Shown in pieces: positions 6,884-43,595 of a stretch of 53,413 bases of DNA (position 1 is the first letter of the stretch; every line of letters starts with the position of its first letter). Origin of the DNA: an uncultured bacterium (GTDB lineage Bacteria; Patescibacteriota; Minisyncoccia; Phycocordibacterales; Phycocordibacteraceae); assembly GCA_947085985.1 (NCBI GenBank), contig CAMTYL010000003.1:81826-135238 (forward strand), given 5' to 3'. A program made the position numbers and the translations under genes. The notes under the pieces are model-generated. The model made no database searches. It was not told the DNA's origin and was given only the letters and a program-made list of their open reading frames with translations.

Positions 6884-7124
6884 GCTCCGCGGGCAGGGAC
6901 GTGAGTACACTTATCGCCCGCGACTCTCTGTCTCGTCGTCACTCGCCAGAGGTCTGCACCACATGAGTACTTCCAATTTCTAATCGCTGCACTCAAGAAA
7001 TTTAGGTCGGGCACCACCTCGCTGGTTCTGCCTGCTAGCAGAACCTTGCTCCGGTGTTCGATCCCTGCCCGCGGAGGAAATAGTAAAGGCCCAATGCTTA
7101 CGCATCAGGCCTAACTATTTCGAG
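6884..7124. repeat. tRNA-Asn 3' trailer with inverted and direct copies of the tRNA 3' end
   Basis: 7056-7076 is the exact reverse complement of 7125-7145 (21 nt); 6884-6899 is identical to 7124-7139 (16 nt). Confidence 0.9.
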
Positions 7125-7162
7125 CTCCGCGGGCAGGGATCGAACCTGCGACCAAGCGATTA

Positions 7163-7716
7163 CACGTATCTTATCGTTTCCGAAAAGGGTGGACTATATC
7201 ATCGCCCGTTCCTGTGAACTGGGGCGGGAGGCGCTTCCGATCGCTTTCGCGACAGTACTCTCTTGCGAGATAGTCTCTGAACCTTCAATCCGATTGCTCG
7301 GAAAGCTTGGCTGCTGATTACCCTCGTCTTTCTCGTTAGGGCTTCCAGCAATTCACCTCCTTTTCATCTCCGAATTACTTCGGGGAGCTGCGTAATGTTG
7401 TCGTGCACTTCAGAGTGACAGTTTGCACATAGGAGAACACATTTCTCCAGTTCCACGAGCGTCTTTTTCCACGACCTTGTTATCCCTTTCATGGAGAGAC
7501 CGAAGTCCTTCTTAGTTGGGTCAAGATGATGGAAGACCATTGCCCGTTTACACCGATCATATCCACAAATGATGCATTTTCCGCCACCGTACTCTAAGGC
7601 CATTTCGCGAAGCTTCTTTCGTCGTTTCGCAACCGCCTTCTTTAAGTACTCAGCACGATCAGCATAGGTTCGTGTCTCTGGCATACTTTACTGAGTATAC
7701 TATTGACACACGTACC
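7163..7716 (-). mobile_element. Group I intron (554 nt) at anticodon position 35/36
   Basis: 5' exon ends in U and intron ends in G; P AATTGCTGGAA, Q AATCAGCAG, R TTCAGAGACTA, S GATATAGTCC; P3 GGAGGTG/CGCCTCC. Confidence 0.92.
7364..7684 (-). CDS. Intron-encoded HNH endonuclease
   Basis: CIICGY...FHHLDP...CVLLCANCHSEVH; lies inside the intron. Confidence 0.88.
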   Translation of the reverse strand: MPETRTYADRAEYLKKAVAKRRKKLREMALEYGGGKCIICGYDRCKRAMVFHHLDPTKKDFGLSMKGITRSWKKTLVELEKCVLLCANCHSEVHDNITQLPEVIRR

Positions 7717-7887
7717 ACAGTCGCTTGCTCTACCACTGAGCTACCGCGGAATGTCCCGCCCTCACCCGAGAGCATGAGCGGTACTTGGGTATTCTAGCGT
7801 ATTTTCTGGAGGAGGCAATTGTAGCCTGTTGACCAGGACCAACTAGAGGGGTAGGCTCCGGGTAGGAAATCATCGGGGAGACCGTGC

Positions 7888-8292
7888 GTGAACCATTCAG
7901 ACAGTCTGTACACCAAAGCCATGGAGCGGAAGCTCCTGGTGGAGGGGATTCTCGAGCGCCTTGCTCGTGAGGAAATATCCGAAAGAACTGCGCGAAAGCA
8001 GATTGCGATCTTCATCGGTCGTGGCATCTACGCCTGTCAGTCGCACCATATGGGGGAAGCTGAGGAGCTATTTGATGTGCAGCAGGTTTCCTTGGTGCTT
8101 GGGAGGGCGGAGGGATTTGTCGTTGCTATCCGCCGTTCGGGTGAATTCAAAGGAGAGACGGTACTCATCCCGTTTTTTGACGGCGGGATGGGATTCTTTG
8201 GAGTCGTCTCGCGGTCTGACTACCGGGGCCCACGGTTCATTCGTCCTCGCATGAGGAAAAGACGCATACAACAACTTCGTGCAGCGGCCTAA
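7888..8292 (+). CDS. Hypothetical protein (orphan cassette)
   Basis: GGGGAG SD, GTG start, hairpin near 8300-8335 downstream. Confidence 0.6.
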   Translation: MNHSDSLYTKAMERKLLVEGILERLAREEISERTARKQIAIFIGRGIYACQSHHMGEAEELFDVQQVSLVLGRAEGFVVAIRRSGEFKGETVLIPFFDGGMGFFGVVSRSDYRGPRFIRPRMRKRRIQQLRAAA

Positions 8293-8374
8293 TGCCGACA
8301 AGCGCTCCGGATCCAGTAGGCTCCGGAGCGCTTTCACTTTGCTATACTTACCGTATTCGCTAATTACATTTTCT

Positions 8375-8617
8375 ATGCTCACACTCTATGTCAAAACAGG
8401 ATGCCCGTATTGTGCTAAGGTGCTCGCCGTAGGTGAAGAGCTTGGCCTTGAGTTCAAAATAAAGAACGTAGAGGATCCTGCTATTGAGACTGAGCTCGTT
8501 ACGCGCGGAGGGAAGCGCCAGATGCCGTACTTGGTGGATGGCGACGCTGCCATTGAGATGTACGAGTCGGACGACATCATTGCGTACCTGCGCAGTACTG
8601 CTGCAAAGCCCGAGTAA
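8375..8617 (+). CDS. Glutaredoxin / GST-N domain protein
   Basis: CPYC, GGKRQMPYLVD and MYESDDII motifs. Confidence 0.9.
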   Translation: MLTLYVKTGCPYCAKVLAVGEELGLEFKIKNVEDPAIETELVTRGGKRQMPYLVDGDAAIEMYESDDIIAYLRSTAAKPE

Positions 8618-11531: not shown

Positions 11532-12840
11532 TCGTAGCTTCAATTGTAGCGCCAATAGATTGCAATCGCAGTACCAAATCCTCGTACCCACGATTAATCA
11601 TATATATGTTGCGCAGCATTGATTTGCCCTCGGCGGCGAGCATGCCAATCAATAGAACGGTGGCAGGGCGAAGTGCTGCAGGGCACATAAGCTCGGCTCC
11701 GCGTAGGTGGCGGGGGCCAGTTATTTGCACACGGTGTGGATCAAAGAGGAGTACATCTGCTCCAAGCTTCTCGAGCTCAGTGTAGTAAATGGCACGGTGC
11801 TCAAACACCCAGTCGTGAATAAGGGTGGACCCTTCCGCTTGGGTTGCAATGACTGCAAAGAACGGCAAGTTATCAATATTAAGTCCGGGGTAGGGGCGCG
11901 GGTGAATTTTCTCGGGAAAGGCCACTAGGGTGGACGGCTCAATATGAATGTCTACCAGCTTGGTGATACCGTTTTTTGCAAGGCCTGCGTCCTCTAGACG
12001 AAACTGCAACCCCATCTTCTCAAGCACAAACAACTCCACCTCAAGAAACTGGATAGGAGCTCGGCGAATGGTGAGCGCGGAGTGGGTGCTCGCCGCTGTT
12101 GCTATAAAGAACATCGCATCAATCGGGTCCTCGGCAACCGCGTAGGTAATGTCCTGGTTAATGCTTGCGAGGCCAGTCACCGTCAGGGTGGTGGTACCAA
12201 TTCCTTCTATCTGTACGCCAAGCGCGCGCAAGTAACCGCACACTTCCTGCACCTGGTAATTTGCTGACGCGTAACGAAGCGTGGTGGTACCCGCCACACC
12301 ACTTGCTGCAAAGAGTGCGTTAATGGTGGCGGTGTCGCTTGATTCATAAAACACAATTTCAGCAGGGGACAGACCATCGTGCGAAATAGCGAAGCGGTCA
12401 GAGAGTGTTTCAATAGAGACCCCAAACTTTTCTAGTGCCCACAAGTGCGCGCGCACCGAACGCTCGCCCAAGGTGCAGCCACCTGATTGTGGAATATCAA
12501 AGGATTGAAGCTGGTGCAGGAGTGGACCGATGAACATGAGAATGCTGCGCGTACGCACGGCAGCAGCTTTATCAAGTGTTTCAAGTTGGAGCTGCTCGGG
12601 TGGAGTAATGGTGAGCGTCCTTCCTTCCCACTCACAGGAAATACCAATGGACCGAAGTACTTCTATGAGGCGATTCACTTCCTCAATCTTTGGCATGTCC
12701 TCTAAGGTAGTGACCCCGCGATTCAAGAGTGAACCCGCGAGAAGCGCCACCGCACCATTCTTGGAAGAATTGGTAGTGATGGTTCCACTCAAGGGTCGGC
12801 CACCTTCTACGACGAACGTACTTCGGTCACTTGTAGCCAT
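11524..12840 (-). CDS. murA: UDP-N-acetylglucosamine 1-carboxyvinyltransferase
   Basis: SSKNGAVALL, GGCTLGERS (catalytic Cys loop) and INRGYE motifs. Confidence 0.93.
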   Translation of the reverse strand: MATSDRSTFVVEGGRPLSGTITTNSSKNGAVALLAGSLLNRGVTTLEDMPKIEEVNRLIEVLRSIGISCEWEGRTLTITPPEQLQLETLDKAAAVRTRSILMFIGPLLHQLQSFDIPQSGGCTLGERSVRAHLWALEKFGVSIETLSDRFAISHDGLSPAEIVFYESSDTATINALFAASGVAGTTTLRYASANYQVQEVCGYLRALGVQIEGIGTTTLTVTGLASINQDITYAVAEDPIDAMFFIATAASTHSALTIRRAPIQFLEVELFVLEKMGLQFRLEDAGLAKNGITKLVDIHIEPSTLVAFPEKIHPRPYPGLNIDNLPFFAVIATQAEGSTLIHDWVFEHRAIYYTELEKLGADVLLFDPHRVQITGPRHLRGAELMCPAALRPATVLLIGMLAAEGKSMLRNIYMINRGYEDLVLRLQSIGATIEATNG

Positions 12841-12933
12841 GGCTCAATTCTATAGGAGGAAAGGGAACAGAGCTACCTGGGGAGATGCTTGTTTTGAGCT
12901 CTCGCTCGAAGCGGGGTATGATAGCCAGACGAT

Positions 12934-13947
12934 ATGGCAAAATTCTCTCCACGTCTTGGCATAGACCTCGGAACCACAAACGTGCTCGTGTTTCTGCCGG
13001 GGAAGGGTGTGGTTCTGAACGAGCCCTCCGTTGTTGCGGTTTCTACCGAGAACAACCGGGTGCTCGCCATTGGCGCAGAAGCAAAGGCAATGATTGGGCG
13101 CACGCCAGACTCCATCATTGCGTACCGACCGATGAAGGACGGAGTGATTGCGGACTACCGGGTGACGGAGGCCATGCTTCGCTACTTTATTCGCAAAGCA
13201 CTGGGTAAGTGGAATCTGTTTAAGCCCACGGTGCTGGTGTCGGTGCCTGCCGGAGTGACGAGCACCGAGAAGCGCGCGGTGGTTGAAGCTGCGGTGAAGG
13301 CGGGGGCAGCTGACGCGTACGTAGTAAAGGAGCCAATTCTTGCAGCCATTGGCGCAGGTATTCCTATCCACGAAGCAATGGGTCGCATGGTGGCAGACAT
13401 TGGTGGAGGCACCATTGATGTGGCGGTGATTTCACTCGGAGGCATTGTGGCGTCCACTTCTGTGAAAGTGGCAGGGAACAAGTTAGACCGTGCAATCGTG
13501 GACTATATGAAAAAGCAGTACAACCTGGCTATTGGCGACAAGACTGCTGAGGAGATAAAAATTCAGATTGGTTCTGCCGTACCAGTAACGGAGGAGCTTT
13601 CTATGAATGTGAAGGGACGTGATTTGGTGACCGGACTTCCACGCACCGTTGAACTTAAAACAAACGAAGTGGTGCAGGCCCTTAGCCGAGAGCTCCGCGA
13701 TATGATGAATGCGATTCGCAAAGTGCTCCAGGAGACGCCGCCGGAGCTTGCAAGCGACATCATTGATAACGGCATTATTTTGACCGGAGGGTCTAGTCAG
13801 TTGCGCCACCTGCCAGAGCTTGTGTTCCGACGTACGGGGGTAGAGGCAAAGCTCGCGCCCGACGCGTATTTCTGTGTTGCGCGCGGGACAGGGGTGGCGT
13901 TGAAGCATTTGGATACCTACAAGCAGAGCATCATCTCCAAGAAATAG
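12934..13947 (+). CDS. mreB: Rod shape-determining protein MreB (stand-alone paralog)
   Basis: GIDLGTTN, NEPSVVA, DIGGGT and LTGGSSQL motifs. Confidence 0.95.
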   Translation: MAKFSPRLGIDLGTTNVLVFLPGKGVVLNEPSVVAVSTENNRVLAIGAEAKAMIGRTPDSIIAYRPMKDGVIADYRVTEAMLRYFIRKALGKWNLFKPTVLVSVPAGVTSTEKRAVVEAAVKAGAADAYVVKEPILAAIGAGIPIHEAMGRMVADIGGGTIDVAVISLGGIVASTSVKVAGNKLDRAIVDYMKKQYNLAIGDKTAEEIKIQIGSAVPVTEELSMNVKGRDLVTGLPRTVELKTNEVVQALSRELRDMMNAIRKVLQETPPELASDIIDNGIILTGGSSQLRHLPELVFRRTGVEAKLAPDAYFCVARGTGVALKHLDTYKQSIISKK

Positions 13948-13950
13948 GTT

Positions 13951-14070
13951 CGCACCGTCAGAATCCGCACCTGCTTTGTTGTGAGATATCACTCACTCAT
14001 CACCGTACTGTCTAGTACGGCTCTTCGTTCGTTCCTCTCACGCCTCGCATCTGCATGATTCTGGCGGCGC
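13951..14070 (+). repeat. REP-like palindromic element, copy 1
   Basis: CTGCTTTGTTG...TCACCGTACT-GTCT-AGTACGGCTC...CGCCTCGCA; outer stem CGTCAGAATC/GATTCTGGCG. Confidence 0.8.
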
Positions 14071-14134
14071 TCAAGAAATGTTTGAAGAAGTAGAACGGGC
14101 CCCCGCGCAAAAGCGCGGGGGCCCGTGTCGTTCT

Positions 14135-14479
14135 TCAGGTGCCTTGGAGAGTCTCCCTCGGGGCGTCCTTGGTGACGGAGAGTCCGTACCCGGCCAGCTC
14201 TTCTGCCATGCAGAAGACGAACGCTTCGTCCTGATGCTGTCGATACAGCCAGTCAGACTCGTTCGGCAGGCGAGCAGTGCCCGCCGCTTTCGCCACACAC
14301 AGAGGCTTGGCCGCGAGGAATGCCCCAGTCACGGATTTCTCCGTCACGTCAGGACTTCTCTCACCAGTCACGAAAATGCCCGGCGGAGTGTACTCCTGGC
14401 TGGGTTGCTGGACGGTGTCTTCGGCGTGAGCTGCTCCTGCAGAAAGCAGGGCAGCCAGTACTAAAGGTACGATGCGCAT
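14135..14479 (-). CDS. Secreted hypothetical protein (orphan cassette)
   Basis: GGGAGG SD; signal peptide MRIVPLVLAALLSAGAAHA; GC hairpin at 14097-14125. Confidence 0.75.
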   Translation of the reverse strand: MRIVPLVLAALLSAGAAHAEDTVQQPSQEYTPPGIFVTGERSPDVTEKSVTGAFLAAKPLCVAKAAGTARLPNESDWLYRQHQDEAFVFCMAEELAGYGLSVTKDAPRETLQGT

Positions 14480-14555
14480 GTTGGTTTCCTCCCTTTGTGC
14501 GCGCGAACTGGGGCCTAGTATACAGCACCCCTGTGCGTGCACTACAATGAGCATC

Positions 14556-15239
14556 ATGGCTCATGCGCTCGTAGTAGAAGGACAGAGAGATAGTGCATTA
14601 CGTACACTGCGTGCTCACGCGGCAGAGTTGCTCGCTATAGTGGGCGAGCCGCACGCAGATTTTGTGGTATTTGAATACGGCTTGTTCTCGGTAGACGACG
14701 CGCGCGCAGTCGCTCAGTTTGCAAGCAGTGCGCCGGTAGTGGGAGACACCAAGATGGTAGTGATTATGGCGACACGCATTTTTCATGAGGCACAGAACGC
14801 GCTCCTGAAGTTATTTGAGGAACCTCCGAAAAGTGTGGTGATGGCTCTCGTTGTTCCTTCGGTAGGGCAGTTGCTTCCAACACTTCGTTCACGCGTCGTT
14901 GTCCTGAGTTCAGACAGTACCTCTACGTCTCCCGCACGGGCATTCATCGCGCTGACTCCCGAGGCTAGAGAGAAGTTCCTGGGTAAACTGCTTGATAGAA
15001 CAAAAGGAGACAAAGACGAGGATAAGCAGGCTGCGCGCGGCGAGCTGCTTGCGCTTGTTGAGGATTTGATTCGGGAGACGTATCAGGCAAAAGAGAACGC
15101 GAGTGAGAAAGATATGGACTCTCTGAACGCATTTCTGGAAGACCTATCCGCCTTTCTTCCCATACTGCATGAGCGCTCTGCGCCGCTCAAGCTGATTGTG
15201 GAGCATCTGCTCCTAGTGTTTCCACGGTCTCTCGCATAG
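14556..15239 (+). CDS. holB: DNA polymerase III delta' subunit-like (short)
   Basis: HADF, VDDAR, EAQNALLKLFEEPP and LLPTLRSR motifs. Confidence 0.85.
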   Translation: MAHALVVEGQRDSALRTLRAHAAELLAIVGEPHADFVVFEYGLFSVDDARAVAQFASSAPVVGDTKMVVIMATRIFHEAQNALLKLFEEPPKSVVMALVVPSVGQLLPTLRSRVVVLSSDSTSTSPARAFIALTPEAREKFLGKLLDRTKGDKDEDKQAARGELLALVEDLIRETYQAKENASEKDMDSLNAFLEDLSAFLPILHERSAPLKLIVEHLLLVFPRSLA

Positions 15240-15268
15240 GGCGTGTTTCTGGTAGACTATAGGTATCT

Positions 15269-15820
15269 ATGGCATACGACTTTTCTAAACTAGACGCAGC
15301 AATTAAGGAGACTGATGAGTGGCTCGCTCGCGAGTACACGGGTGTGCGTACTGGCCGTGCAACGCCTTCAATTCTTGACGTCATTAAGCCAGAGGCGTAT
15401 GGCACTCGCAGCCCCGTCTCACAGCTTGCAAACATAAGTGTTGAAGACGCTCGCTCCCTTCGCGTTATTCCCTGGGACAAGACACTGACCAAGGCAATTG
15501 AAAAAGCCATCACAGACGCCGACCTTGGTGTGGGTGTCTCTACCGACGAGATGGGACTGCGCGTGACGTTCCCTGAACTTACGGGAGAGCGCCGTGTGAT
15601 GCTTACCAAGCTCTCTCGCGAGAAGCTGGAGACGGCAAAGGTGACGCTTCGCGGACACCGCACCGATGCGCTTAAAGATTTGGACGCTGCTGAGAAAGAA
15701 GGTGGAATGGGTGCAGACGACCTGAAACGCCTAAAGGAAGAGGTGCAGAAGAAAATTGATAAGGGAGTGGAAGGGCTTGAAACGCAAGCAAAGCGCAAGG
15801 AAGTTGAAATCGCAGCATAA
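15269..15820 (+). CDS. frr: Ribosome recycling factor
   Basis: VRTGRATPSILD and FPELTGERR motifs. Confidence 0.97.
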   Translation: MAYDFSKLDAAIKETDEWLAREYTGVRTGRATPSILDVIKPEAYGTRSPVSQLANISVEDARSLRVIPWDKTLTKAIEKAITDADLGVGVSTDEMGLRVTFPELTGERRVMLTKLSREKLETAKVTLRGHRTDALKDLDAAEKEGGMGADDLKRLKEEVQKKIDKGVEGLETQAKRKEVEIAA

Positions 15821-16932
15821 TGACACTCCTCGTATTCATTCTCGTTCTAGTCGCACTCATTGTGGTGCATGAATTTGGGCACTTTGTGGTGGCCAAACTT
15901 TCTGGCATGCGCGTAGACGAATTTGGCATTGGGTATCCGCCGCGCGCGTGGGGATTTAAGCGAGGGGAGACTGAGTACACCCTGAACTGGTTGCCGTTTG
16001 GAGGGTTTGTAAAAATATTTGGGGAGGACTTGGAGGAAAAGCTTCCAGGAGCCGCGCCCACGGTAGGCGACCCACGTTCGTTTTCTAGTCGCCCGCGTAT
16101 TTTGCAGGCACTCGTATTGGTGGCCGGTATCACCATGAACCTGCTGCTCGCGTACGTGCTTATCACCGCGACACTCATGATGGGAACTCCGCGTGCGCTT
16201 GAAGAGAGCGAAATTGCCGGAGCCAAGGACGTATCGGTGGCAGTGGCGGGCGTGCTACCGGGCTCTCCAGCCGAGCTTGCAGGGCTTAAAGCAGGGGACT
16301 ACGTGAAGAGCGCTCAGGTTGGGGAGCAAGCCTGGAGCGGAACTGACACCGAAGGCTTTACCGCGCTTGTAGCTGGGGACACAACAGGAGAACCTATCGC
16401 TATTACCGTTGTTCGCGGTGAGGAGGAGAAGGTGTTAACGGCAACGCCAACGGGCGGCATCATCGCGGCTGACCCAGAGCGTAAGGCGCTTGGCGTGCAG
16501 CTTGGCGTTGTGGGTGTTGTCCCAGTCTCACTGCTTGAAGCGCCTGTTCAGGGAGCCATCTTTACCTGGGAGATAACAAAGGCGACCGCGGTTGCGCTCG
16601 TTGGATTCTTTGCGAGCGTGTTCACACTCTCTGCGGACCTCTCACAAGTATCGGGCCCTGTTGGGATTGCGGGAGCAGTGGGGCAAGCATCCTCCAACGG
16701 ACTTGCAGCACTTCTAAGTATCACTGCGCTTATTTCTATAAACTTGGCGCTCATAAACATTCTGCCCATTCCCGCGCTTGATGGAGGACGTCTTCTCTTT
16801 GTGGCTATTGAAGCACTGACGAGAAAACCTATAAAGCCGATAGTGGCAAATGCGGTGAACACGGTTGGCTTTGGGTTCCTTATCCTATTGATGGTGGTGG
16901 TGACCGCGAGTGACATTTTCAAGTTGTTTTGA
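15820..16932 (+). CDS. rseP: RIP metalloprotease RseP (M50, PDZ)
   Basis: HEFGH, LPFGGFVKI and NILPIPALDGGR motifs. Confidence 0.95.
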   Translation: MTLLVFILVLVALIVVHEFGHFVVAKLSGMRVDEFGIGYPPRAWGFKRGETEYTLNWLPFGGFVKIFGEDLEEKLPGAAPTVGDPRSFSSRPRILQALVLVAGITMNLLLAYVLITATLMMGTPRALEESEIAGAKDVSVAVAGVLPGSPAELAGLKAGDYVKSAQVGEQAWSGTDTEGFTALVAGDTTGEPIAITVVRGEEEKVLTATPTGGIIAADPERKALGVQLGVVGVVPVSLLEAPVQGAIFTWEITKATAVALVGFFASVFTLSADLSQVSGPVGIAGAVGQASSNGLAALLSITALISINLALINILPIPALDGGRLLFVAIEALTRKPIKPIVANAVNTVGFGFLILLMVVVTASDIFKLF

Positions 16933-17090
16933 ATGAGTGCCCAGAATCCCAATTCTCTACAAGGTTGAACCTTGCAGAGGCGATATTGTAATTTTCTCGT
17001 ATTTATTGCATAGTTGCGCCGGGTGGTCTTACTGTGAGGCTGCCATAACCATAGTCGATTCCCACAGAGGATAGACGATTGGAGGATACG

Positions 17091-17681
17091 ATGGCTTGTG
17101 TAAATAGTGCCGCTCTCAAAAGGCGTCGCGCGGAGCTACTGGAAATTGCTGATCATAGCGTTCTCGTGCGGTCCGAATTGCACATAGATCACTCGGGCTG
17201 TGAACGATTCCTGGGAGAGTTTCTTATTGCTCCCAAATTAAGGAGCGCTGAGCCCAGGTATCTGCTGAACGTCACGGTGAACACAGAGATGTACGGGCGG
17301 GTGAAAACTCGCGTTGGTAGTTTTCATTTTCATCCCCAACACAAGGTGAACGACGCCGCGAACGTCATAGTGGGCCTGTGGGCATCGCGCGATCTTGGGG
17401 ACGAGCGTTCCTCCAGTTTCCTGACACCCAGCGCATTCGTAAGTGTCTTGAAAAAAGGCGACGCGTTCGTCTTACTGCCGCCTGAGAGCATATTCCTACA
17501 GCTCCACTTGGCTGTTGTTACTGGCCACCTGGGCTCTTTGTTTCAGAGCTGGCGCGACGCCTGGAGGTCGCCATCCGCTGAACAGGAGAAGCTGCTAGAA
17601 GCCACCCACATACTGACCGACCGGCTTGGTGCATTTGTCTGTCAAAGCCGCAAACGCGTTCTCGCACAACTGATCCTGTGA
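17091..17681 (+). CDS. Hypothetical protein (orphan cassette)
   Basis: GGAGG SD; hairpin plus T run at about 17694-17730. Confidence 0.65.
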   Translation: MACVNSAALKRRRAELLEIADHSVLVRSELHIDHSGCERFLGEFLIAPKLRSAEPRYLLNVTVNTEMYGRVKTRVGSFHFHPQHKVNDAANVIVGLWASRDLGDERSSSFLTPSAFVSVLKKGDAFVLLPPESIFLQLHLAVVTGHLGSLFQSWRDAWRSPSAEQEKLLEATHILTDRLGAFVCQSRKRVLAQLIL

Positions 17682-17765
17682 ACAAACTGTCGAAGGTCGT
17701 CCCGGTTTCCGGGGCGGCCTTTCTCTTTTTGCCCTCTGGATAGAGGAGACGTATACTGTCCCCAT

Positions 17766-19010
17766 ATGCGGCAATCACAGCTCTTCACCAAGACCAGGCG
17801 CGAGGCTCCGTCAGACGAAGTTTCAAAGAACGCCCAGCTCCTTATTCGTGCAGGATATGTCCACAAGGAGATGGCGGGAGTCTATGATTATTTGCCCCTT
17901 GGTCACCGCACGCTCCAAAAGATTGTTCAAATCATCCGCGAAGAGATGAACGCCATTGGTGGACAAGAGTTGTCACTCACTGCGCTGCAGGACCCTGCAG
18001 TGTGGAACAAGACAGAGCGTTTTGACGACGACGTAATTGATGTGTGGTTTAAGACGGCACTTAAAAATGACAGCGTGCTCGGCCTTGCCCCTACGCACGA
18101 AGAGCCACTCACTAACGTGATGCGCGATCACATTTCGTCATACAAAGATTTACCTACCGCGGCGTATCAGTTTCAAACAAAGTTCCGCAACGAACTGCGT
18201 GCGAAGTCTGGCATTATGCGTGGTCGCGAATTCCTCATGAAGGACTTGTACTCCTTCTCTGCAAACAAGGAACAGCACGACGAGTTTTACGACAGGGCTG
18301 CACAGGCGTATAAAAACGTATTTGCGCGCCTTGGTATTGGAGACCAAACCTACTTCACCTACGCAAGTGGTGGCTCGTTCAGCAAGTACTCACATGAGTT
18401 TCAGACTATTTGTGACGCGGGTGAGGATACTATCTATATAGACAAAGCAACGGGGGTCGCCGTAAACGAGGAGGTATACAACGACCCTGAGGTGTTCGCT
18501 ACGAGCGGGCTTGTTAAGGAGGCACTCGTGGAGGCAAAAGCGGCAGAGGTAGGGAATATCTTCACCCTTGGAGAAAAGTTTTCTGCTGCACTTGGTCTTG
18601 CCTACACTGATAGCGACGGCTCGCAGAAGAACGTGTTTATGGGCAGTTATGGCATTGGGCCCGGACGCCTTATGGGTACGATCGTTGAACTACTCTCAGA
18701 CGAGAAGGGAATCGTGTGGCCTGAGTCGGTGGCTCCGTTTACCTATCACCTGGTCTCGCTCGGCGGGAATGATCAGGCTGTAAGCGAGTTTGCGGAGAAA
18801 CTCTACGCAGACATGACGCTTGCTGGAAAGGAAGTGCTCTTTGACGACAGGGATACGCGTGCGGGTGAGAAGTTTGCCGACGCTGACTTGATGGGTATGC
18901 CTTGGCGCATTGTTATCGGGAAGGACGCCGTTGCAACCGGTGAGATAGAGCTTATGAATCGTAGTACGGGCGAAGTAACTAAAGTATCGCGAGCAGCGCT
19001 TGTGGGCTAA
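17766..19010 (+). CDS. proS: Proline--tRNA ligase (short form without INS editing domain)
   Basis: LAPTHEE, FRNELRAKSGIMRGREFLMKDLYSF and MGSYGIG motifs. Confidence 0.96.
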   Translation: MRQSQLFTKTRREAPSDEVSKNAQLLIRAGYVHKEMAGVYDYLPLGHRTLQKIVQIIREEMNAIGGQELSLTALQDPAVWNKTERFDDDVIDVWFKTALKNDSVLGLAPTHEEPLTNVMRDHISSYKDLPTAAYQFQTKFRNELRAKSGIMRGREFLMKDLYSFSANKEQHDEFYDRAAQAYKNVFARLGIGDQTYFTYASGGSFSKYSHEFQTICDAGEDTIYIDKATGVAVNEEVYNDPEVFATSGLVKEALVEAKAAEVGNIFTLGEKFSAALGLAYTDSDGSQKNVFMGSYGIGPGRLMGTIVELLSDEKGIVWPESVAPFTYHLVSLGGNDQAVSEFAEKLYADMTLAGKEVLFDDRDTRAGEKFADADLMGMPWRIVIGKDAVATGEIELMNRSTGEVTKVSRAALVG

Positions 19011-19016
19011 ATCAGT

Positions 19017-21107: not shown

Positions 21108-22783
21108 GACTCTTTCGTAGACGACGAGGACACCGAACGGCTCGAGAGATTGCGCCAGAGGACATTTTGCTAGACGCGGAGAATTTGCCTGATTTTGATC
21201 ACGCGCGCCTTGAGGGAAGATTGGAAAAGCCGGTGCCGACCAGCACGTATCGGGGGGCACAGATTATTGTGGTGTGTATGTTGCTCGTCCTCGTGGGTAA
21301 AGCGGCGCATTTAGAGCTCGTGAAGGGTGCGGAGTACGCTGCCCAAAGTGAGCGCAATCGTCTACGACCAGAGGTAATTTTTGCGTCTCGCGGAGCTATT
21401 GTTGATAGAAACGGCATCGCGCTTGTTTCCAATCACGTTGGAGATGACAAGCGGATACAGCGCCAGTATGCGTCCCCAGGGTTCGGTCACTTGCTCGGGT
21501 ACGTGTCCTACCCGAAGAAAGATTCTTCGGGAAATTATTATGATACCGAGATAAAAGGACTAAGTGGTGTGGAAGCAGCGTTGAACGATGAACTCGCTGG
21601 AGTAAATGGCAGGCTGTTAGTTGAAGAGGATGCACGAGGGAGAGTGCAGTCGCAGGGCACTATTTCGCCAGCCACCGACGGCGCTACCGTGACGCTCTCG
21701 GTTGATGAGCGCGCGCAGCGAGCACTGCACAGGGCCGTCGGTGGCCTGGCTGAAAGAATTCCGTACATGGGTGGAGCGGGAATTTTGATGGACGCACACA
21801 CAGGTGAAGTACTTGCTCTCGTTTCCTATCCAGAATTTGACCCGAACATTCTTTCGTCGGGCACTCCTGCGAGCGTTATTGCTTCCTACCAAACGGACAG
21901 CAGGAAAGTGTTTCTAGATAGAGCAGTGGCAGGGCTCTACACACCTGGGTCCATCATAAAGCCGATGGAGGCTGCAGGAGCGCTGAGTGATGGCTTAATT
22001 ACGCCAGAGACTACTGTTTATTCAAAGGGCTACATTAGTATTCCAAATCCGTATAATCCATCAAAGCCATCTATCTTCAACGACTGGAAGGCACATGGAA
22101 GCACTGACACGCGAGCTGCAATTGCTGTGTCTTCTGATGCATTCTTTTACTCAATAGGAGGAGGGTACGAGCACATAAAGGGGCTTGGCATTGAGCGACT
22201 GAAGTATTGGTATGACAGCTTCGGGTTTACGTCACCCACAGGCATTGAGTTGTTCGGAGAAAAGACGGGATTTGTGCCGACACCAAAATGGAAGGAGGAT
22301 ACCTTCAACGAGCCGTGGCGACTCGGCGACACCTACAACACTGCCATCGGGCAGTACGCAATGCAAGTGACACCGCTTGAGGCTGCGCGCGCGGTTGCGG
22401 CAGTTGCAAATGGTGGGAAGCTAGTGCGCCCCACTATTATTAAGGGAAAGCTACCCGAGGGGCAGTCCATAGCTATCTCTCAGCATGCGCTGCAGGTAGC
22501 ACGAGAAGGAATGCGACAGGCGGTGACACACGGAACAGCAAAAGGTCTAAATGATCTCTCGTATGTATCGCTTGCCGCAAAGACAGGAACAGCGCAGCTT
22601 GGGTTCAACAATGAGTGGCATAACTCGTGGCTGGTTGGATTCTTTCCCTACGAAAAACCGAAGTATGTATTTGTAGTACTGATGGAGCGCGGACCGGCCA
22701 GTAACAGTCTTGGCGGGGTGTTCGTTATGCACCAATTCTTGCAAGAATTGCGTACAACTGCTCCCGAATACTTTCAGGAGTAG
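21104..22783 (+). CDS. mrdA: Penicillin-binding protein 2 (class B)
   Basis: RGAIVDRNG, PGSIIK (SxxK), SSD and KTGTAQ motifs. Confidence 0.9.
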   Translation: MRLFRRRRGHRTAREIAPEDILLDAENLPDFDHARLEGRLEKPVPTSTYRGAQIIVVCMLLVLVGKAAHLELVKGAEYAAQSERNRLRPEVIFASRGAIVDRNGIALVSNHVGDDKRIQRQYASPGFGHLLGYVSYPKKDSSGNYYDTEIKGLSGVEAALNDELAGVNGRLLVEEDARGRVQSQGTISPATDGATVTLSVDERAQRALHRAVGGLAERIPYMGGAGILMDAHTGEVLALVSYPEFDPNILSSGTPASVIASYQTDSRKVFLDRAVAGLYTPGSIIKPMEAAGALSDGLITPETTVYSKGYISIPNPYNPSKPSIFNDWKAHGSTDTRAAIAVSSDAFFYSIGGGYEHIKGLGIERLKYWYDSFGFTSPTGIELFGEKTGFVPTPKWKEDTFNEPWRLGDTYNTAIGQYAMQVTPLEAARAVAAVANGGKLVRPTIIKGKLPEGQSIAISQHALQVAREGMRQAVTHGTAKGLNDLSYVSLAAKTGTAQLGFNNEWHNSWLVGFFPYEKPKYVFVVLMERGPASNSLGGVFVMHQFLQELRTTAPEYFQE

Positions 22784-22898
22784 GCTTGTAGCACTCCCGA
22801 CTGCGTTGTTGCAGAGCCTCTGCGATTCGTTCACCGTACTATGAGTACGACTCACTCACCGCTTCCTCCGCGCCTAGCAGACAGAGCACTACAAGCCT
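22782..22898 (+). repeat. REP-like palindromic element, copy 2
   Basis: CTGCGTTGTTG...TCACCGTACT-ATG-AGTACGACTC...CGCCTAGCA; outer stem AGGCTTGTAG/CTACAAGCCT. Confidence 0.8.
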
Positions 22899-22983
22899 CC
22901 TCGGTTAGGAAGTGATCGCATCATTGACGCCCAGAAAGGGGCACGTACAATACGAGTAATTAGTCCGTTTAGCACAACTTCAG

Positions 22984-23454
22984 ATGACCGAACAGGAAAC
23001 CATGGTGAGTCAGGAAAAGTTCGACGAGATGATCGCCGAACTTGAAACGTTAAAGACCGTGCGTCGTACCGAGATTGCAAAGAATCTTGAGTACGCACGT
23101 TCCCTTGGCGACCTTTCGGAAAACGCTGAGTATCAGGAAGCACGCGAATTGCAGGCAGCTACCGAGGAGCGCATTCGTCGCTTGGAGGAGTTGGTGAAGC
23201 GCGCACATATTGTGACTGACGGAAAGAAGAAGGATGTCGTTGGTTTTGGCTCCAAAGTTGCGATAAAGCGCGAAGGAAGCAGCGAGGCGCACGAGTACAC
23301 CATCGTTGGGTCTGAAGAAGCAGACATGCGCGAGCGCAAGCTTTCACACGTCTCACCACTTGGTGCAGCACTCATGAATCGCAAAAAGGGAGAAGTGTTT
23401 ACGTTTGAGACGCCGGGAGGGAAGCAGACCTATACCGTAGAAAAGGTCTCCTAG
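22984..23454 (+). CDS. greA: Transcription elongation factor GreA
   Basis: GDLSENAEY and SPLGAALM motifs. Confidence 0.97.
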   Translation: MTEQETMVSQEKFDEMIAELETLKTVRRTEIAKNLEYARSLGDLSENAEYQEARELQAATEERIRRLEELVKRAHIVTDGKKKDVVGFGSKVAIKREGSSEAHEYTIVGSEEADMRERKLSHVSPLGAALMNRKKGEVFTFETPGGKQTYTVEKVS

Positions 23455-23462
23455 TCTGAATT

Positions 23463-23571
23463 CTAGAATTATCCCATCTGCGTTGTTGCGGGTCCCGCAC
23501 ACCTCGCTCACCGTACTACTAGTACGGCTCGCGAACTGTGCCTCCCACGCCTAGCATCTGGGCAATTCTAA
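23463..23571 (+). repeat. REP-like palindromic element, copy 3
   Basis: CTGCGTTGTTG...TCACCGTACT-ACT-AGTACGGCTC...CGCCTAGCA; outer stem TAGAATTATCCCA/TGGGCAATTCTA. Confidence 0.8.
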
Positions 23572-23689
23572 GACCTCTCTGTGTGTGTAGCGCCTTGTAT
23601 TTGAGCGTTTCTTTCGCTCCTTATACGGTTGTATAGAAAAGGGCGGGTCCGTAGGACCCGCCCTTTGGCGTTGCGTCACGTGGGTGAAC

Positions 23690-28026: not shown

Positions 28027-28039
28027 CCATTCCCCGCGT

Positions 28040-29369: not shown

Positions 29370-29549
29370 GACATCACGGGGAACCGGCGATTACGCCTCT
29401 CGGTCCTTACAGGACCTGTACACCTTGCGGATGATTTGTCGCAAAACTTCAAATCATGCTCGCAAGGTCTTCGATTCCCCGACGCAGCTTTCCCAAAGCC
29501 GCTTGAGGTCACAACGCAGAAAGCCCCTTGCGGGGCGTTTCTGGCGTTG
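29370..29549. repeat. tRNA-Glu 3' trailer with inverted and direct copies of the tRNA 3' end
   Basis: Inverted TTCGATTCCCCG (29470-29481) plus TGAGGTCACAACGC (29504-29517); direct GACATCACGGGGAACCG (29370-29386), 15/17 match to 29551-29567. Confidence 0.85.
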
Positions 29550-29621
29550 TGACCTCACGGGGAATCGAACCCCGATTTGATCCGTGAGAGGGATCTGTCC
29601 TAACCGTTAGACGATGAGGCC
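29550..29621 (-). tRNA. tRNA-Glu(CTC)
   Basis: GGCCTCATCGTCTAACGGTTAGGACAGATCCCTCTCACGGATCAAATCGGGGTTCGATTCCCCGTGAGGTCA cloverleaf. Confidence 0.95.
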
Positions 29622-38092: not shown

Positions 38093-38228
38093 GGGGTACG
38101 AGTCGTTTTGCCCAGCGGCAAAACGCTCTCACTCTCGCTGCAGCAAATTCCTTCGCAGCCCCTCTTCAGCTCAGGAATTACCATGCTGCTGCAGCTGCGA
38201 GAGCCCCCATAGTTTCGTACCGACTCCG
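38093..38228. repeat. Long imperfect palindromic intergenic element
   Basis: Outer GGTACGA/TCGTACC; side hairpin CGTTTTGCC/GGCAAAACG; CTCGCT-GCAGC...GCTGC inner stem. Confidence 0.6.
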
Positions 38229-41106: not shown

Positions 41107-41125
41107 GCGCTAACTATACCAAGAC

Positions 41126-42043
41126 TTACAGCCATTTCTTAATTCTAAAGAAGGTGAAGAAACTAAGTGCCAACGCAATCATAATGCCAATTATTATCCA
41201 GAAGTCATGCGGGAGGCCCACAAGGGGAAGCATGTCGGTGTTCATACCAAAAATACTTGAAACCAAGGTGAGCGGGAACGTGACAAAGGCCATAATGGTG
41301 AGTGTCTTCATCACTTCGTTTTGCCCCGAGGAGAGGAGGGAGTCGTTGGTAATGCGAAGCTCGCTCGCCACCGCTCGGTAGGACGCGACAATTGCTGCGG
41401 CGTGGGCTCGCTCAGCTTCTATGCGGGACGCACGCTCTCCAAACGTCTTTCCAAAAAAAGCAGCAGTCTGTAGCTCGCCAAGGAACTGCGCAAGGGTCTC
41501 TCTGTGTCGCGCCAAAACAGTATCAAACCGGAGAAGTATACGACTGACTTCGGAAATCTTTCTGACCGTTACGCGCTCCTTTCCTGCGAATATATCGTCC
41601 TCAATCCTCTCGAGCATGCGTAACAGCTGTTCAGCTTCGCCACTTATGGCGGTGTATAGTCGCCGTAAAATTTGCTCTAGAAGTACCTGCGTAGAGAACG
41701 TGGTGCTGTGAGTGGCCAAAAGCTCCTCAGCCTCAAATACTCTATGGAGACTATGGAGAGACTGAACAACCTCATATCGCACCGTAACGAGGAAATTCTT
41801 ACCAACGATGAAGTCCACCTCCTGCGCGCGTGCCACCTCACTACGTTCAATCGTGGGAAAATGGAGCACCATGAACTCGTACTCAGGGAAGGTAATACTG
41901 ATGGGGTAGGGAGTTGGCGTGATTATCTCCTCTTCAATGCGGGAGTTAATATCAAACTCACTCATGACGTTACTTAGCTCCTCGTGGGTAGGAGATTCAA
42001 GGTCAATCCAGGTAACCTTGCCGCGGGTGTGTCGGGTCATCAT
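41126..42043 (-). CDS. corA: CorA family divalent cation transporter
   Basis: WIDL, NEVMKTLT and FGMN motifs; two C-terminal TMs. Confidence 0.92.
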   Translation of the reverse strand: MMTRHTRGKVTWIDLESPTHEELSNVMSEFDINSRIEEEIITPTPYPISITFPEYEFMVLHFPTIERSEVARAQEVDFIVGKNFLVTVRYEVVQSLHSLHRVFEAEELLATHSTTFSTQVLLEQILRRLYTAISGEAEQLLRMLERIEDDIFAGKERVTVRKISEVSRILLRFDTVLARHRETLAQFLGELQTAAFFGKTFGERASRIEAERAHAAAIVASYRAVASELRITNDSLLSSGQNEVMKTLTIMAFVTFPLTLVSSIFGMNTDMLPLVGLPHDFWIIIGIMIALALSFFTFFRIKKWL

Positions 42044-42134
42044 GCTTCACACAGTATAGCCTGCACCGCGTGTGTAGGACGGGCATTACTCACAGTATAG
42101 AAAAGTATCTCTCGGTGGTAGTATGGGTATATCT

Positions 42135-43436
42135 ATGGAGCGCGATCCACACTTGGTAGACGAGGAACAGCTTACCGACGAAGCCACAGCGTCGTCTCGG
42201 TCGCGTACGCGCGTGCCGCACATTGTGCGTACAGCGGCAGTGCTTGCGCTCGTACTCGTGGTTGGGTTTGCAGGCGGGCTAAAAGTTGGAGCAACGGGGG
42301 GTGCGTATTCACTTTCAAACATTCCGCTCATTGGAGACTCGCTCGACGCGACTCCAGACCCAACCGCGGACTTCAATGCATTTTGGAAGGCCTGGAACGC
42401 GCTTGACGCTCGGTTTGTACAAACGCATGGCTCTACCACAGCGCCAACGACTAAGGAGAAACTGTGGGGAGCGATTGCTGGTATGGCAGAGTCGTTTGGC
42501 GACCCGTACACCGTATTCATGCCGCCACAGGAAGCACAGGCATTCCAGGAGACCATCTCAGGTGAGTTTGGTGGCGTGGGTATGGAAATGGGCATCAAAG
42601 ACAAAGCACTCACTATCATTGCGCCGCTTAAGGGGACACCAGCAGAGCGCGCGGGGCTTAGAGCGGGCGACGTGATTATTGGCATTAACGGCACATCCAC
42701 TGACGGCATCACCATTGATGGCGCGGTAAAGCAGATTCGTGGAAAGAAGGGAACGTCAGTGGAGCTCAAGGTCATGCGGGATGGGGCAGTGCTTGATATT
42801 ACGGTAGTGCGCGACACCATTGCGGTACCTACTATTGAGCACAAGTATGACGCTGCAACTGGCGTGTTTACCATCTCTATCTACGAGTTCACCGCCACAT
42901 CAAGTGGACTGTTTGATAAGGCGCTTGCAGCGTATAGAACTTCCGGCTCACGTCTGCTGCTTATTGACGTACGTGGCAACCCAGGCGGCTACCTATCCTC
43001 GGCGGTATCCATGGCAAGTCACTTCTTGCCAGACGGCACACTTATCGTCACTGAAGATTTCAATGGTAAAGAGACAAACACCGAGCATCGCAGTCGGGGT
43101 ACGGGCGGCATACCTGCGGGATCCAAGGTGGTGGTGCTTATAGATAAAGGCTCGGCGTCAGCCTCTGAGATTCTTGCGGGTGCGCTGAAGGATGGAAAAG
43201 TGGCAACGCTTGTGGGTACCCGCTCATTTGGAAAGGGCTCGGTGCAAGAGTTGATTGATATTGATGGGGGAGCGCTCAAGGTGACCATTGCGCGCTGGCT
43301 CACCCCAAGCGGCAAGTCCATCTCTGATGGGGGACTGGCTCCAGATATTGAAGTAGAGCGCACAGCGGACGACTTCAAGGCAGGGAAGGACCCGCAGATG
43401 GCACGTGCTATAGAGTTTCTTACAAAAGGGAAGTAG
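42135..43436 (+). CDS. ctpA: S41 carboxyl-terminal processing protease
   Basis: DPYT, PDZ, DVRGNPGG, SASASEI and SFGKGSVQ motifs. Confidence 0.93.
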   Translation: MERDPHLVDEEQLTDEATASSRSRTRVPHIVRTAAVLALVLVVGFAGGLKVGATGGAYSLSNIPLIGDSLDATPDPTADFNAFWKAWNALDARFVQTHGSTTAPTTKEKLWGAIAGMAESFGDPYTVFMPPQEAQAFQETISGEFGGVGMEMGIKDKALTIIAPLKGTPAERAGLRAGDVIIGINGTSTDGITIDGAVKQIRGKKGTSVELKVMRDGAVLDITVVRDTIAVPTIEHKYDAATGVFTISIYEFTATSSGLFDKALAAYRTSGSRLLLIDVRGNPGGYLSSAVSMASHFLPDGTLIVTEDFNGKETNTEHRSRGTGGIPAGSKVVVLIDKGSASASEILAGALKDGKVATLVGTRSFGKGSVQELIDIDGGALKVTIARWLTPSGKSISDGGLAPDIEVERTADDFKAGKDPQMARAIEFLTKGK

Positions 43437-43442
43437 TCGCTC

Positions 43443-43595
43443 GTGTGCGAAATGATGCGCAGCCCGTCCTACAGGGCGTCGCACTGCATTGTCGCCTCGC
43501 TACGAAAAATAGAAGAGCGCTGCGCTAAATCTATTTTTCTACTCGGCTTCGTGCAGTGCAGACTGCTTTCGGTTTAGCGCATTATTTCTGCACAC
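43443..43595. repeat. Long imperfect palindromic intergenic element
   Basis: GTGTGCGAAATGATGCGC/GCGCATTATTTCTGCACAC outer stem; GCACTGCA/TGCAGTGC middle stem; GAAAAATAGA/TCTATTTTTC inner stem. Confidence 0.75.

Follow-up and report, generated by a model that had tools for sequence, protein, structure and literature searches.

Structured elements in the window

The window, that is the whole stretch of 53,413 nucleotides analysed here, belongs to a 753-kb genome of the Patescibacteria (G000). Seven of its sites had been proposed to represent a single class of element, composed of a CTCGCT motif, a variable hairpin and a GCTC tail on one strand. Hairpins were found at all seven sites, and their outer stems differ from site to site as described in this original prediction. 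However, the seven sites fall into at least four families of folded repeats between genes and do not form one element. Sites 13996, 22826 and 23503 belong to a family of rod hairpins (family 1, detected with model R1), and sites 7018 and 29424 lie in cloverleaf-like elements behind tRNA genes (family 2). Sites 38134 and 43496 are two separate low-copy hairpins. The features are as follows.

6886..7075, minus strand: family 2 element of type A, behind tRNA-Thr, holding site 7018
7123..7752, minus strand: tRNA-Thr(UGU), split by a group I intron at about 7163-7716 (exons read)
7364-7684: HNH open reading frame of the group I intron, inside the tRNA-Thr(UGU) intron
13943..14078, minus strand: family 1 copy A (R1, 91.5 bits), between the stop codon of gene 12934-13947 and the gene's own terminator at 14095-14126
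22773..22908, minus strand: family 1 copy B (R1, 103.1 bits), its outer stem overlapping the stop codon of gene 21035-22783
23450..23585, minus strand: family 1 copy C (R1, 117.7 bits), after gene 22984-23454
29374..29512, minus strand: family 2 element of type B, behind tRNA-Glu, with site 29424 in arm 1
29549..29621, minus strand: tRNA-Glu(CUC) (ARAGORN; Rfam tRNA, 59.3 bits)
38125..38204, minus strand: long imperfect hairpin at site 38134, between two minus-strand genes
43462..43605, minus strand: structured element at site 43496, with one paralogue (G000:C3:368095-368238)

The intron of tRNA-Thr(UGU) matches Rfam Intron_gpI with 71 bits at 7170-7421, and intron-less orthologues of this tRNA gene (76 nt) are found in the related genomes G127 and G051.

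A common repeat was confirmed for the three rod-hairpin sites, whereas the remaining four gave no R1 match at E≤10. The motif itself fails two of the refutation tests set in the original prediction, being neither more frequent next to hairpins nor strand-biased. CTCGCT occurs 342 times on the plus strand of the genome versus 328 times as AGCGAG, and its density between genes (0.43 per kb) is that of the genome as a whole (0.45 per kb). It is followed by a hairpin in 24 of 670 cases on both strands (3.6%), compared to a mean of 3.4% (sd 0.9) for 60 letter permutations. Even inside family 1 the hexamer is not conserved; it falls in a variable stem and is missing from most copies. A single class defined by this motif is therefore very improbable and already largely refuted. 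The stricter combination of CTCGCT, hairpin and (G/A)CTC tail had five matches in the genome and at most three in any permutation; three of the five are homologous tRNA-trailer elements. Also in line with one class, the motif as read on the folding strand, GAGC...AGCGAG, frames a tandem G·A junction below a variable hairpin; this holds for copy C of family 1 and for types A and C of family 2. What stands of the proposed class is that the sites hold strand-specific structured units which are present or absent as wholes.

Rod-hairpin repeats behind genes

Family 1 comprises 31 copies at E≤5.7e-6, spread over two contigs, of which copy C has the highest R1 score. Each forms a long rod hairpin of ~110-135 nt. 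The conserved parts are two internal loops and an apical stem (CCGTAC/GTACGG) which on the folding strand is closed by tandem G·A mismatches. All other stems vary and covary, the outermost being the most variable part, and mean column identity among the first 13 copies aligned was 57%. Across 44 sequences (G000 and relatives), paired cells made up 90.4% versus 70.7% after shuffling, and 23 of 28 pairs had changed on both sides. None of 500 shuffles matched the observed pairing, and slid controls reached 25-41%. In 30 of the 31 copies one strand is the more stable, the mean difference being 9.9 kcal/mol; the better-folding strand has 97 G·U pairs and the other 49. In both main families the better-folding strand within the window is the minus strand, opposite to the one on which the motif had been read. 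Rfam gave no match at E≤10 for four family 1 loci.

Nineteen of the 31 copies are located at most 25 nt past a same-sense stop codon, and in 11 copies measured the outer stem starts between -11 and +10 nt from the stop. The stem noted at 22782 does reach into the stop codon, starting 5 nt before its end. Many outer stems carry a run of A on one side and a run of T on the other. The terminator consensus scan reported no family 1 element; behind the genes preceding copies B and C it found no other terminator-like site either. A promoter-like site is present downstream of copy B (22924-22951), and no conserved promoter was evident in the aligned flanks of the family, which vary.

Orientation had been described as constant irrespective of the strand of neighbouring genes. 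This is an effect of the window, because its three rod copies all follow plus-strand genes, both tRNA genes lie on the minus strand, and family 1 changes strand genome-wide at the GC-skew switches. The flip at the putative ori and ter that had been suggested as a check was thus observed. Leaving aside the ambiguous 135-150 kb zone of contig C4, 25 of 28 copies have the folding strand opposite to the G-rich leading strand and hence on the leading-strand template.

At all three family 1 loci of the window, orthologous sites in the closest relatives are filled or empty as whole units. At copy A, G080 has the element, whereas the site is empty in G057, G127, G064 and five others; at copy B, G057 has it and G127 does not; at copy C it is present in G080 and missing from G057 and G127. 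The empty sites contain neither stem arm, which indicates that the variable outer stems are part of the inserted unit. Empty sites with both arms already in place, which would have refuted the original prediction, were thus not what was seen. This argues against the proposal that flanking DNA is duplicated or inverted on insertion, as far as the rod family is concerned. Between orthologous filled copies (G000 versus G080 and G057) the stems differ but pairing is kept. The family is patchy, with 1-10 copies each in 10 of 24 other species of the genus.

Some observations count against mobility. G000 has no pair of near-identical copies and hence shows no indication of recent transposition. Contigs of related strains contain no joints that skip an element. 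A direct repeat (12/14) surrounds the stop codon at copy A and weaker ones occur at copies B and C, but no clear target-site duplication was found at these three.

Cloverleaf-like elements behind tRNA genes

Family 2 elements share a general order. The tRNA gene is followed by a terminator-type hairpin and an inverted copy of the last ~20 nt of the tRNA; next comes the core, whose two or three hairpins have conserved loops, and then the same ~20 nt again as a direct copy. At both tRNA genes of the window the outer stems duplicate the tRNA 3' end, as had been proposed, and the idea that flanking DNA is duplicated or inverted on insertion fits this family. The inverted and direct copies are predicted to pair and to close a cloverleaf-like fold; in the predicted folds of 16 elements, this closing stem encloses three or four hairpins.

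On the minus strand, the type A element consists of a 20-nt inverted copy of the tRNA-Thr 3' end (7056-7075), a core of three hairpins which includes site 7018 and a nested module of ~52 nt, and a 14-nt direct copy (6886-6899). Paralogues are present behind tRNA-Lys and tRNA-His. In the type B element the inverted copy of the tRNA-Glu end is in two pieces with a hairpin between them, followed on the minus strand by core arm 1, a hairpin resembling an anticodon arm, a third, small hairpin and the direct copy. Opposite U71 this inverted copy carries A, whereas the 5' strand of the real tRNA-Glu has G there; the copy was thus made from the 3' strand of the tRNA.

Both copies were found behind 16 of 38 tRNA genes, and at least one behind 18. 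The direct copies measure 8-21 nt and the inserts only about 60-230 nt. A mobile element would need a mechanism that gives 18 different tRNAs a matching inverted copy, which counts against this reading. The elements follow the orientation of the tRNA rather than one strand, and in 15 of 16 the tRNA-sense strand gives the more stable fold. Pairs changed on both sides amount to 20 of 28 in type C and 10 of 24 in type B. The cores are conserved in sequence, and tandem units occur at tRNA-Gly(UCC).

The whole 239-nt block 29309-29547 at tRNA-Glu, terminator included, is absent from G127, whereas G064 has a 22-nt spacer only and G057 two cores in tandem. A search of 40 relatives located the type B core motif in 12 (reversed-pattern control, 0); among these, 7 of 16 other families of the order are represented. 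Among 35 type B cores fetched, 22 follow a tRNA on the same strand, 12 of them with both copies. In many tRNAs and several families of the order, the copy junctions are at the same place, the T loop. Likewise kept across families is the type B hairpin loop CUGUAAG, which resembles an anticodon loop. Rfam yielded chance-level matches only for the two trailers tested. A tRNA-linked family with a stem made from copies of the tRNA's own end looks undescribed so far.

Candidate enzymes

The original prediction invoked HUH enzymes and genes flanked by the motif. Two Y1 HUH genes are indeed present in G000 (PF01797, 39.2 and 24.0 bits, both above cut-off). With the REP-associated tyrosine transposase model NF047646 they score 51.9 and 43.2 bits, below the 80-bit cut-off. 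Neither is flanked by a repeat copy: within about 1.2-1.5 kb on each side the best R1 score was 8.6 bits (E 0.64). In G023 and G010, family 1 copies and Y1 genes which appear to be neighbours are about 550 nt apart with other DNA between them. Y1 matches occur in 9 of 10 family 1-positive and 10 of 14 negative genomes of the genus, and thus do not track the repeat. Both the missing flanking copies and this lack of correlation weigh against a mobile element; as the Y1 genes are many diverged paralogues, a specific pairing between repeat and Y1 protein may still exist. No TnpB-type gene was found (PF07282, best 12 bits). One tyrosine recombinase gene, the only PF00589 match in the genome, is located near the GC-skew minimum of C4.

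Comparison with known systems

Similar to REP/REPIN sequences and their RAYTs, family 1 consists of short, many-copy extragenic palindromes that form long hairpins at gene ends and persist for long, in a genome with Y1 HUH genes. It differs in that the copies are far more diverged and covary throughout, that each is one asymmetric rod instead of two inverted REPs, and that the Y1 genes score below the RAYT cut-off and are unflanked. We know of no REP counterpart to the tRNA-derived stem of family 2. The defining feature of REPs is, according to PMC3733652, a GTAG or CGTC tag at the palindrome end. No such invariant tag was seen in the family 1 alignment; most copies end in the motif GCAGATG and few have GTAG.

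MITEs, including the hairpin-rich PATEs derived from IS200/IS605, are likewise small, non-coding, structured, nested, and present or absent at orthologous sites. MITEs have conserved termini with short target duplications on either side. Here, conserved terminal inverted repeats are lacking, the outermost stems are least conserved, the ends of family 2 are copies of the target, and no TnpB-type gene was found. IS200/IS605 elements favour the lagging-strand template, unlike the better-folding strand of family 1 with its location on the leading-strand template, which speaks against mobility of that kind. As in integrative elements at tRNA 3' ends, the family 2 insert is bounded by a direct repeat of that end and leaves the tRNA intact. 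Family 2 departs from these in its small inserts without integrase, in the 18 different tRNAs hit in one genome and in the additional inverted copy of the target. Integron attC sites lie in arrays of cassettes beside an integron integrase, whereas family 1 copies are scattered over two contigs and the genome has a single PF00589 match.

Family 1 shares with intrinsic (bidirectional) terminators its position directly behind genes and the A and T runs flanking many outer stems, and plain terminators in this genome likewise take the form of long palindromes, with A and T arms. Unlike terminators, it has conserved internal loops and a conserved apical stem over 110-135 nt; moreover, the gene before copy A has an ordinary terminator of its own beyond the element, and the scan does not call the family.

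Origin of the two families

Our leading, still tentative interpretation is that both families are non-autonomous structured repeats of the REP/REPIN/MITE kind, polymorphic by insertion and deletion. They may be kept by selection for the fold of one strand (the minus strand here), and would occupy the sole space tolerated in a compact genome, directly behind genes. An additional role of family 1 in ending transcription is probable. For family 2, integration at the 3' ends of tRNA genes is most likely, with the target copies gained in the process. Candidate agents for these repeats are a Y1 HUH protein or replication template switching. It is rather unlikely that the tRNA-linked family represents a novel type of small integrating element, one that copies its target by hairpin-primed or template-switch synthesis. 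Such a two- or three-hairpin core would enter the T loop or 3' end of any tRNA gene and leave the tRNA end, a hairpin, the inverted copy, the core and the direct copy, so that the apparent terminal repeats would be built from the target and not brought along. Repeated hits could account for the tandem units at tRNA-Gly(UCC) and in G057, and the rod family may be a cousin that targets gene ends. If true, the target-copying system is old and spread over one order of Patescibacteria.

Two further explanations dispense with a mobile element. It is conceivable, though on balance unlikely, that the repeats are functional non-coding RNAs, with family 2 as a tRNA-like RNA on the tRNA strand and family 1 as a bidirectional terminator or insulator hairpin or an antisense RNA. 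The G·U pairs and tandem G·A motifs on the favoured strand and the conserved core loops suit such RNAs as well as they suit mobile elements, which to that extent counts against the latter. The anticodon-like loop of type B, the pairing-preserving changes between orthologues, and the absence of another terminator-like site at copies B and C together with the promoter-like site after B also agree with RNA function. The predicted family 2 fold is closed by a helix equivalent to the acceptor and T stems; since it imitates those of the neighbouring tRNA, such an RNA could be a substrate of RNase P, RNase Z or the CCA enzyme. Yet tRNA models gave no match to the trailers at E≤10, and ARAGORN and Rfam called the true tRNAs only. 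In addition, at tRNA-Glu, Ser-GGA and Arg-UCU the closing stem shows uncompensated decay of its acceptor part, which is unexpected if mimicry were the function, and a terminator-type hairpin precedes family 2. In 19 of 31 copies, the folding strand of family 1 runs antisense to the gene upstream. The patchy distribution, the empty sites and the lack of a conserved promoter or an Rfam family also argue against an RNA.

Alternatively, and with no transposase involved, both families might be by-products of template switching at hairpins during replication (quasi-palindrome correction or ODIRA), which we regard as improbable. A nascent strand would fold back at a palindrome, copy itself and return, giving longer palindromes and a direct-inverted-direct order, with cores copied from other loci. 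According to PMC11790251, ODIRA proceeds by template switching at short inverted repeats and produces a triplication with an inverted copy, the order seen in family 2 with junctions at hairpins. At Lys-CUU, Arg-GCG, Leu-GAG and Lys-UUU, the tRNA 3' end, terminator and inverted copy together make up near-perfect palindromes whose arms measure 25-27 bp, and the replication-dependent orientation of family 1 fits as well. A plain triplication, however, predicts the same spacer and terminator after both direct copies, and these differ at His, Gly-UCC and Arg-GCG. Tyr, Ser-UGA, Thr-GGU and other tRNAs devoid of a core have terminators but no inverted copy. A conserved foreign core at one junction, and T-loop junctions constant over many tRNAs and several families of the order, are equally at odds with ODIRA.

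Low-copy hairpins

The hairpin at 38125..38204 has no paralogue in the genome (BLAST, one 21-nt partial match) and folds with -39.5 kcal/mol on the minus strand versus -32.0 kcal/mol on the plus strand. A look-alike in G023 adjoins a stretch resembling RNase P RNA. Between the element at 43462..43605 and its paralogue, the differences within stems are paired changes.

The seven hairpins and their presumed core

Seven hairpins had been grouped into one element class by a CTCGCT...GCTC core, and all of them lie at the positions assigned to them in the original prediction. Their reassignment in the window is as follows.

13943..14078, minus strand, family 1 (rod-hairpin repeat), copy A, site 13996
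22773..22908, minus strand, family 1, copy B, site 22826
23450..23585, minus strand, family 1, copy C, site 23503
6886..7075, family 2 (tRNA-trailer element) behind minus-strand tRNA-Thr(UGU), site 7018
29374..29512, family 2 behind minus-strand tRNA-Glu(CUC), site 29424
38125-38204, unique long hairpin between two minus-strand genes, site 38134
43462-43605, separate structured element, site 43496

As a shared core the motif did not hold, its density being equal between genes and elsewhere and without strand bias. A hairpin followed 24 of 670 CTCGCT occurrences (3.6%), compared to a mean of 3.4% for 60 letter permutations. The strict composite motif was found five times versus at most three times for any permutation, and three of these five are homologous elements behind tRNA genes. 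The motif is the antisense of GAGC...AGCGAG, which frames the G.A junction below the arm 1 variable hairpin in core types A and C of family 2. Nor did the sites form a single class: a covariance model of family 1 matched 13996, 22826 and 23503 only, and the other four gave no match at E ≤ 10.

Structure of family 1

The family 1 set was built by pattern search, an alignment of 13 copies and then the covariance model, which detected 31 copies in the genome under study (G000; 753 kb in nine contigs, 95.8% complete) at E ≤ 5.7e-6. The element is a rod of approximately 110-135 nt. On the better-folding strand its apex is a CCGTAC/GTACGG stem closed by a G.U pair and two G.A mismatches, below which follow a variable stem, a conserved asymmetric loop, a short covarying G+C stem and a second G.A junction. 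Each locus has its own outer stem, frequently with an A run and a T run; the reach of this stem was determined by anchored extension, which worked in 20 of the 31 copies (no outer stem was found in two of them), the motif anchors failing in 11.

Across 44 sequences from G000 and its relatives covariation was strong, with pairing in 90.4% of cells versus 70.7% after shuffling and double-sided changes in 23 of 28 pairs. The observed covariation values were reached by none of 500 shuffles (slid controls, 25-41%). One strand was more stable in 30 of the 31 copies, by a mean of 9.9 kcal/mol, and carried 97 G.U pairs versus 49. In the window this is the minus strand, and not the plus strand on which the motif had been read. 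Four family 1 loci had no Rfam match at E ≤ 10, and a search of three other loci was likewise empty; at gathering level, Rfam recognised only the tRNA and a group I intron.

Position, orientation and occupancy of family 1

When the weaker-folding strand is read, 19 of the 31 copies lie at most 25 nt past the stop codon of a gene of the same sense, and seven more adjoin the called start of a gene on the folding strand. Outer stems start from -11 to +10 nt relative to the stop codon in the 11 measurable copies, which confirms the reach of a stem into the stop codon noted at 22782.

GC skew is positive on contig C3 until about 140 kb and negative thereafter, and on contig C4 it switches from negative to positive at about 130-150 kb, with dnaA at 162.5 kb. 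These switches and the position of dnaA put the window, which spans C3:81826-135238, on a single replichore, near a putative terminus; the sign change on C3 (about 135-140 kb) falls just past its right end. In 25 of 28 copies, excluding the ambiguous zone at C4 135-150 kb, the folding strand is the one opposite the G-rich leading strand. The orientation of family 1 therefore changes at the skew switches, which answers positively the check proposed for origin and terminus. Where gene and replication direction are in conflict, seven copies follow replication and one to three transcription, a soft count made on crude ORF calls.

Comparison of filled and empty orthologous sites, likewise proposed beforehand, was carried out for the three window copies.

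Occupancy of orthologous family 1 sites in G000 and relatives (other G codes)
Copy A: filled in G000 and G080; empty in G057, G127, G064 and five others
Copy B: filled in G000 and G057; empty in G127 (12 nt from stop codon to next promoter-like box)
Copy C: filled in G000 and G080; empty in G057 and G127

At the empty copy A sites a short spacer separates the stop codon from an ordinary terminator. The closest relative is G057, with 86% identity in the gene flanking copy A. None of the empty sites contains either outer-stem arm: the entire hairpin, including its variable outer stem, is gained or lost as one unit. The outer stems are therefore not copies of the locus, except for a few bases of stop-codon overlap. 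A direct repeat matching at 12 of 14 positions flanks copy A, and weaker ones flank B and C.

Of 24 other species of the genus, 10 carry family 1 (1-10 copies each); outside the genus, single weak matches were obtained in 3 of 16 other families. Contigs from four DNA runs, mapped to window positions 12500-30500, contained no joint that skips an element, and contigs of related strains span copy B without gap.

At C4:137488-138044 two opposed copies, the upstream one with a perfect 17-bp outer stem, bracket a gene, which we take from its sequence to encode ribosomal protein S15. This arrangement adjoins the only tyrosine recombinase gene and is close to the GC-skew minimum.

Family 2 elements behind tRNA genes

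The build of family 2 was read from 260 nt behind each of 38 tRNA genes. The tRNA is followed by a terminator-type hairpin, an inverted copy of the tRNA end, a conserved core (type A, B or C) and a direct copy of about 20 nt. The inverted copy comprises the last ~20 nt of the tRNA, from T loop to discriminator, plus CCA where encoded, and the direct copy repeats this stretch. Exact copies of 8-20 nt were found in both senses behind 16 of the 38 tRNAs and in at least one sense behind 18, with a chance expectation, by our own estimate, of about 0.07 per tRNA and sense. At four tRNAs, terminator, tRNA end and inverted copy together make near-perfect palindromes whose arms measure 25-27 bp.

The inverted copy complements the tRNA 3' strand exactly. 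Opposite U71, the copy at tRNA-Glu carries an A instead of the G of the true 5' strand; it was accordingly made by copying the 3' end and not by duplicating the tRNA. The idea of an element that inverts or duplicates its flanks fits the anatomy of family 2; for family 1, with empty sites devoid of both arms, it does not.

In the predicted fold the two copies form a closing stem around two to three core hairpins; in 15 of 16 elements the tRNA strand folds more stably, with a mean advantage of 9.3 kcal/mol. Double-sided changes were seen in 20 of 28 pairs of types A and C (eight sequences) and in 10 of 24 pairs of type B (five sequences), in which one hairpin has an anticodon-like loop. At tRNA-Glu, Ser-GGA and Arg-UCU the acceptor portion of the closing stem has decayed with no compensating changes, which reads more like a footprint of the origin of the element than a selected mimic. 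Rfam gave only chance-level matches for the two window trailers. In 12 elements of G000 (e.g., window 29482-29503) a small extra hairpin divides the inverted copy at the border of acceptor and T stem; it has the form AGC, a 6-8-bp stem with a loop such as CTGGGA or TCTGCA, then GCG.

At the tRNA-Glu locus, G127 lacks the whole 239-nt block, the stop codon of the convergent gene lying 2 nt from the tRNA end; G064 has just a 22-nt spacer, and G057 two cores in tandem. The type B core motif was detected in 12 of 40 relatives, made up of 5 of 24 within the genus and 7 of 16 other families of the order; copy numbers reached 15, and a reversed-pattern control gave no match. Of the 35 type B cores examined, 22 lie within 330 nt downstream of a tRNA on the same strand, and 12 of these 22 are preceded by an inverted and followed by a direct copy that both correspond to the tRNA at the locus. 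Outside G000 the types A and C loop motif is uncommon: it was present in 5 of the 400 other genomes sampled from the phylum.

Candidate mobility genes

G000 encodes two Y1 HUH (RAYT-like) proteins with HUH and tyrosine motifs, which score above the Pfam and below the NCBIfam RAYT cut-off.

C3:297941-298711, Y1 HUH gene
C4:225696-226418, Y1 HUH gene

Flanking of RAYT or TnpA genes by the repeat, which had been suggested as a check, was not observed: neither gene has a family 1 copy beside it. Such genes are present in 19 of 24 species of the genus and do not separate family-1-positive from family-1-negative genomes. A PDB sequence search with one Y1 protein gave no match. The best score for the TnpB-type domain PF07282 in G000 was 12 bits, under the cut-off, and hence no TnpB-type gene was called. 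Within the genus, as seen in G001, G023 and G006, the Y1 HUH genes are multi-copy and strongly diverged; one 0.6-Mb genome has up to 10 matches, whose identity to the query is 29-58%. An apparent neighbourhood of Y1 gene and family 1 in G023 and G010 was rejected, as other DNA lies between them; in G023 this is a stretch that is RNase P RNA-like by its GGAAAGUCC motif.

One tyrosine recombinase is encoded in G000, as well as two reverse transcriptases of about 330 aa outside the window (C3:382443-383444 and C3:411497-412492), whose N-termini are reminiscent of DGR enzymes. A family-2-like element without detected tRNA is located at C3:410260-410420, about 1.1 kb from the second gene. Since this is the sole link, reverse transcriptase was rejected as driver.

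Nature and origin of the elements

The best-supported reading takes the elements as several families of structured, non-autonomous repeats of the REP/REPIN/MITE kind. Such repeats would come and go as units and sit directly behind genes, and selection would maintain the fold of one strand. Family 1 may in addition double as transcription end, because no terminator-like site other than the element was found behind the genes of copies B and C, and a promoter-like site follows B. A functional RNA is a serious rival, given the conserved loops, the G.U and G.A content and the conservation across the order. For family 2, replication template switching of the ODIRA type was also considered. According to PMC11790251 it yields a direct-inverted-direct order, which is the order seen here; the spacers behind the two direct copies differ, however, and plain triplication is thereby excluded.

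Patescibacteria genomes are tiny, gene-dense and regarded as repeat-poor. In the present one, about 50 structured repeats occupy many of the gaps behind genes and tRNAs, and at the level of abstracts we found no description of such elements in this group. If family 2 builds its ends from the target, it would represent a mode of integration so far undescribed in bacterial mobile DNA and a natural case of target-templated insertion. If the elements are RNAs instead, half of the tRNA genes of G000 would be accompanied by an RNA of unknown kind that mimics tRNA. Under either reading the present models can serve to annotate the elements. The elements also break assemblies, contigs of G057 terminating within them.

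Other structured elements, nesting and the tRNA-Thr intron

The element at 43462-43605, behind a probable minus-strand membrane-protein gene (43694-44146), has one paralogue at C3:368095-368238, the stems of the two differing by paired changes. It is a third structured repeat, with two copies and conserved single-stranded stretches. In G023 (L195, G023:C3:106300-109000) a look-alike of the 38125-38204 hairpin lies downstream of a Y1 HUH gene, flanked on one side by the RNase P RNA-like stretch and on the other by a copy of family 1.

A module of about 52 nt consists of a hairpin with arms AAATTTCT/AGAAATT and a conserved tail.

Window 6935-6990, ~52-nt module
C4:74583-74716, ~52-nt module
L196 (G010:C16), ~52-nt module

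Family 2 elements contain it behind four tRNAs (Thr, Lys-CUU, Ser-GGA and Leu-UAG), and both G000 and G010 have a family 1 copy in which it is nested; the small modules insert into each other. Finally, a group I intron (window 7163-7716, minus strand) with an HNH endonuclease ORF (7364-7684) interrupts the anticodon loop of tRNA-Thr(UGU). Orthologues of this tRNA lack the intron in G127, G051 and apparently G057; the G064 orthologue has it, at 84% identity.
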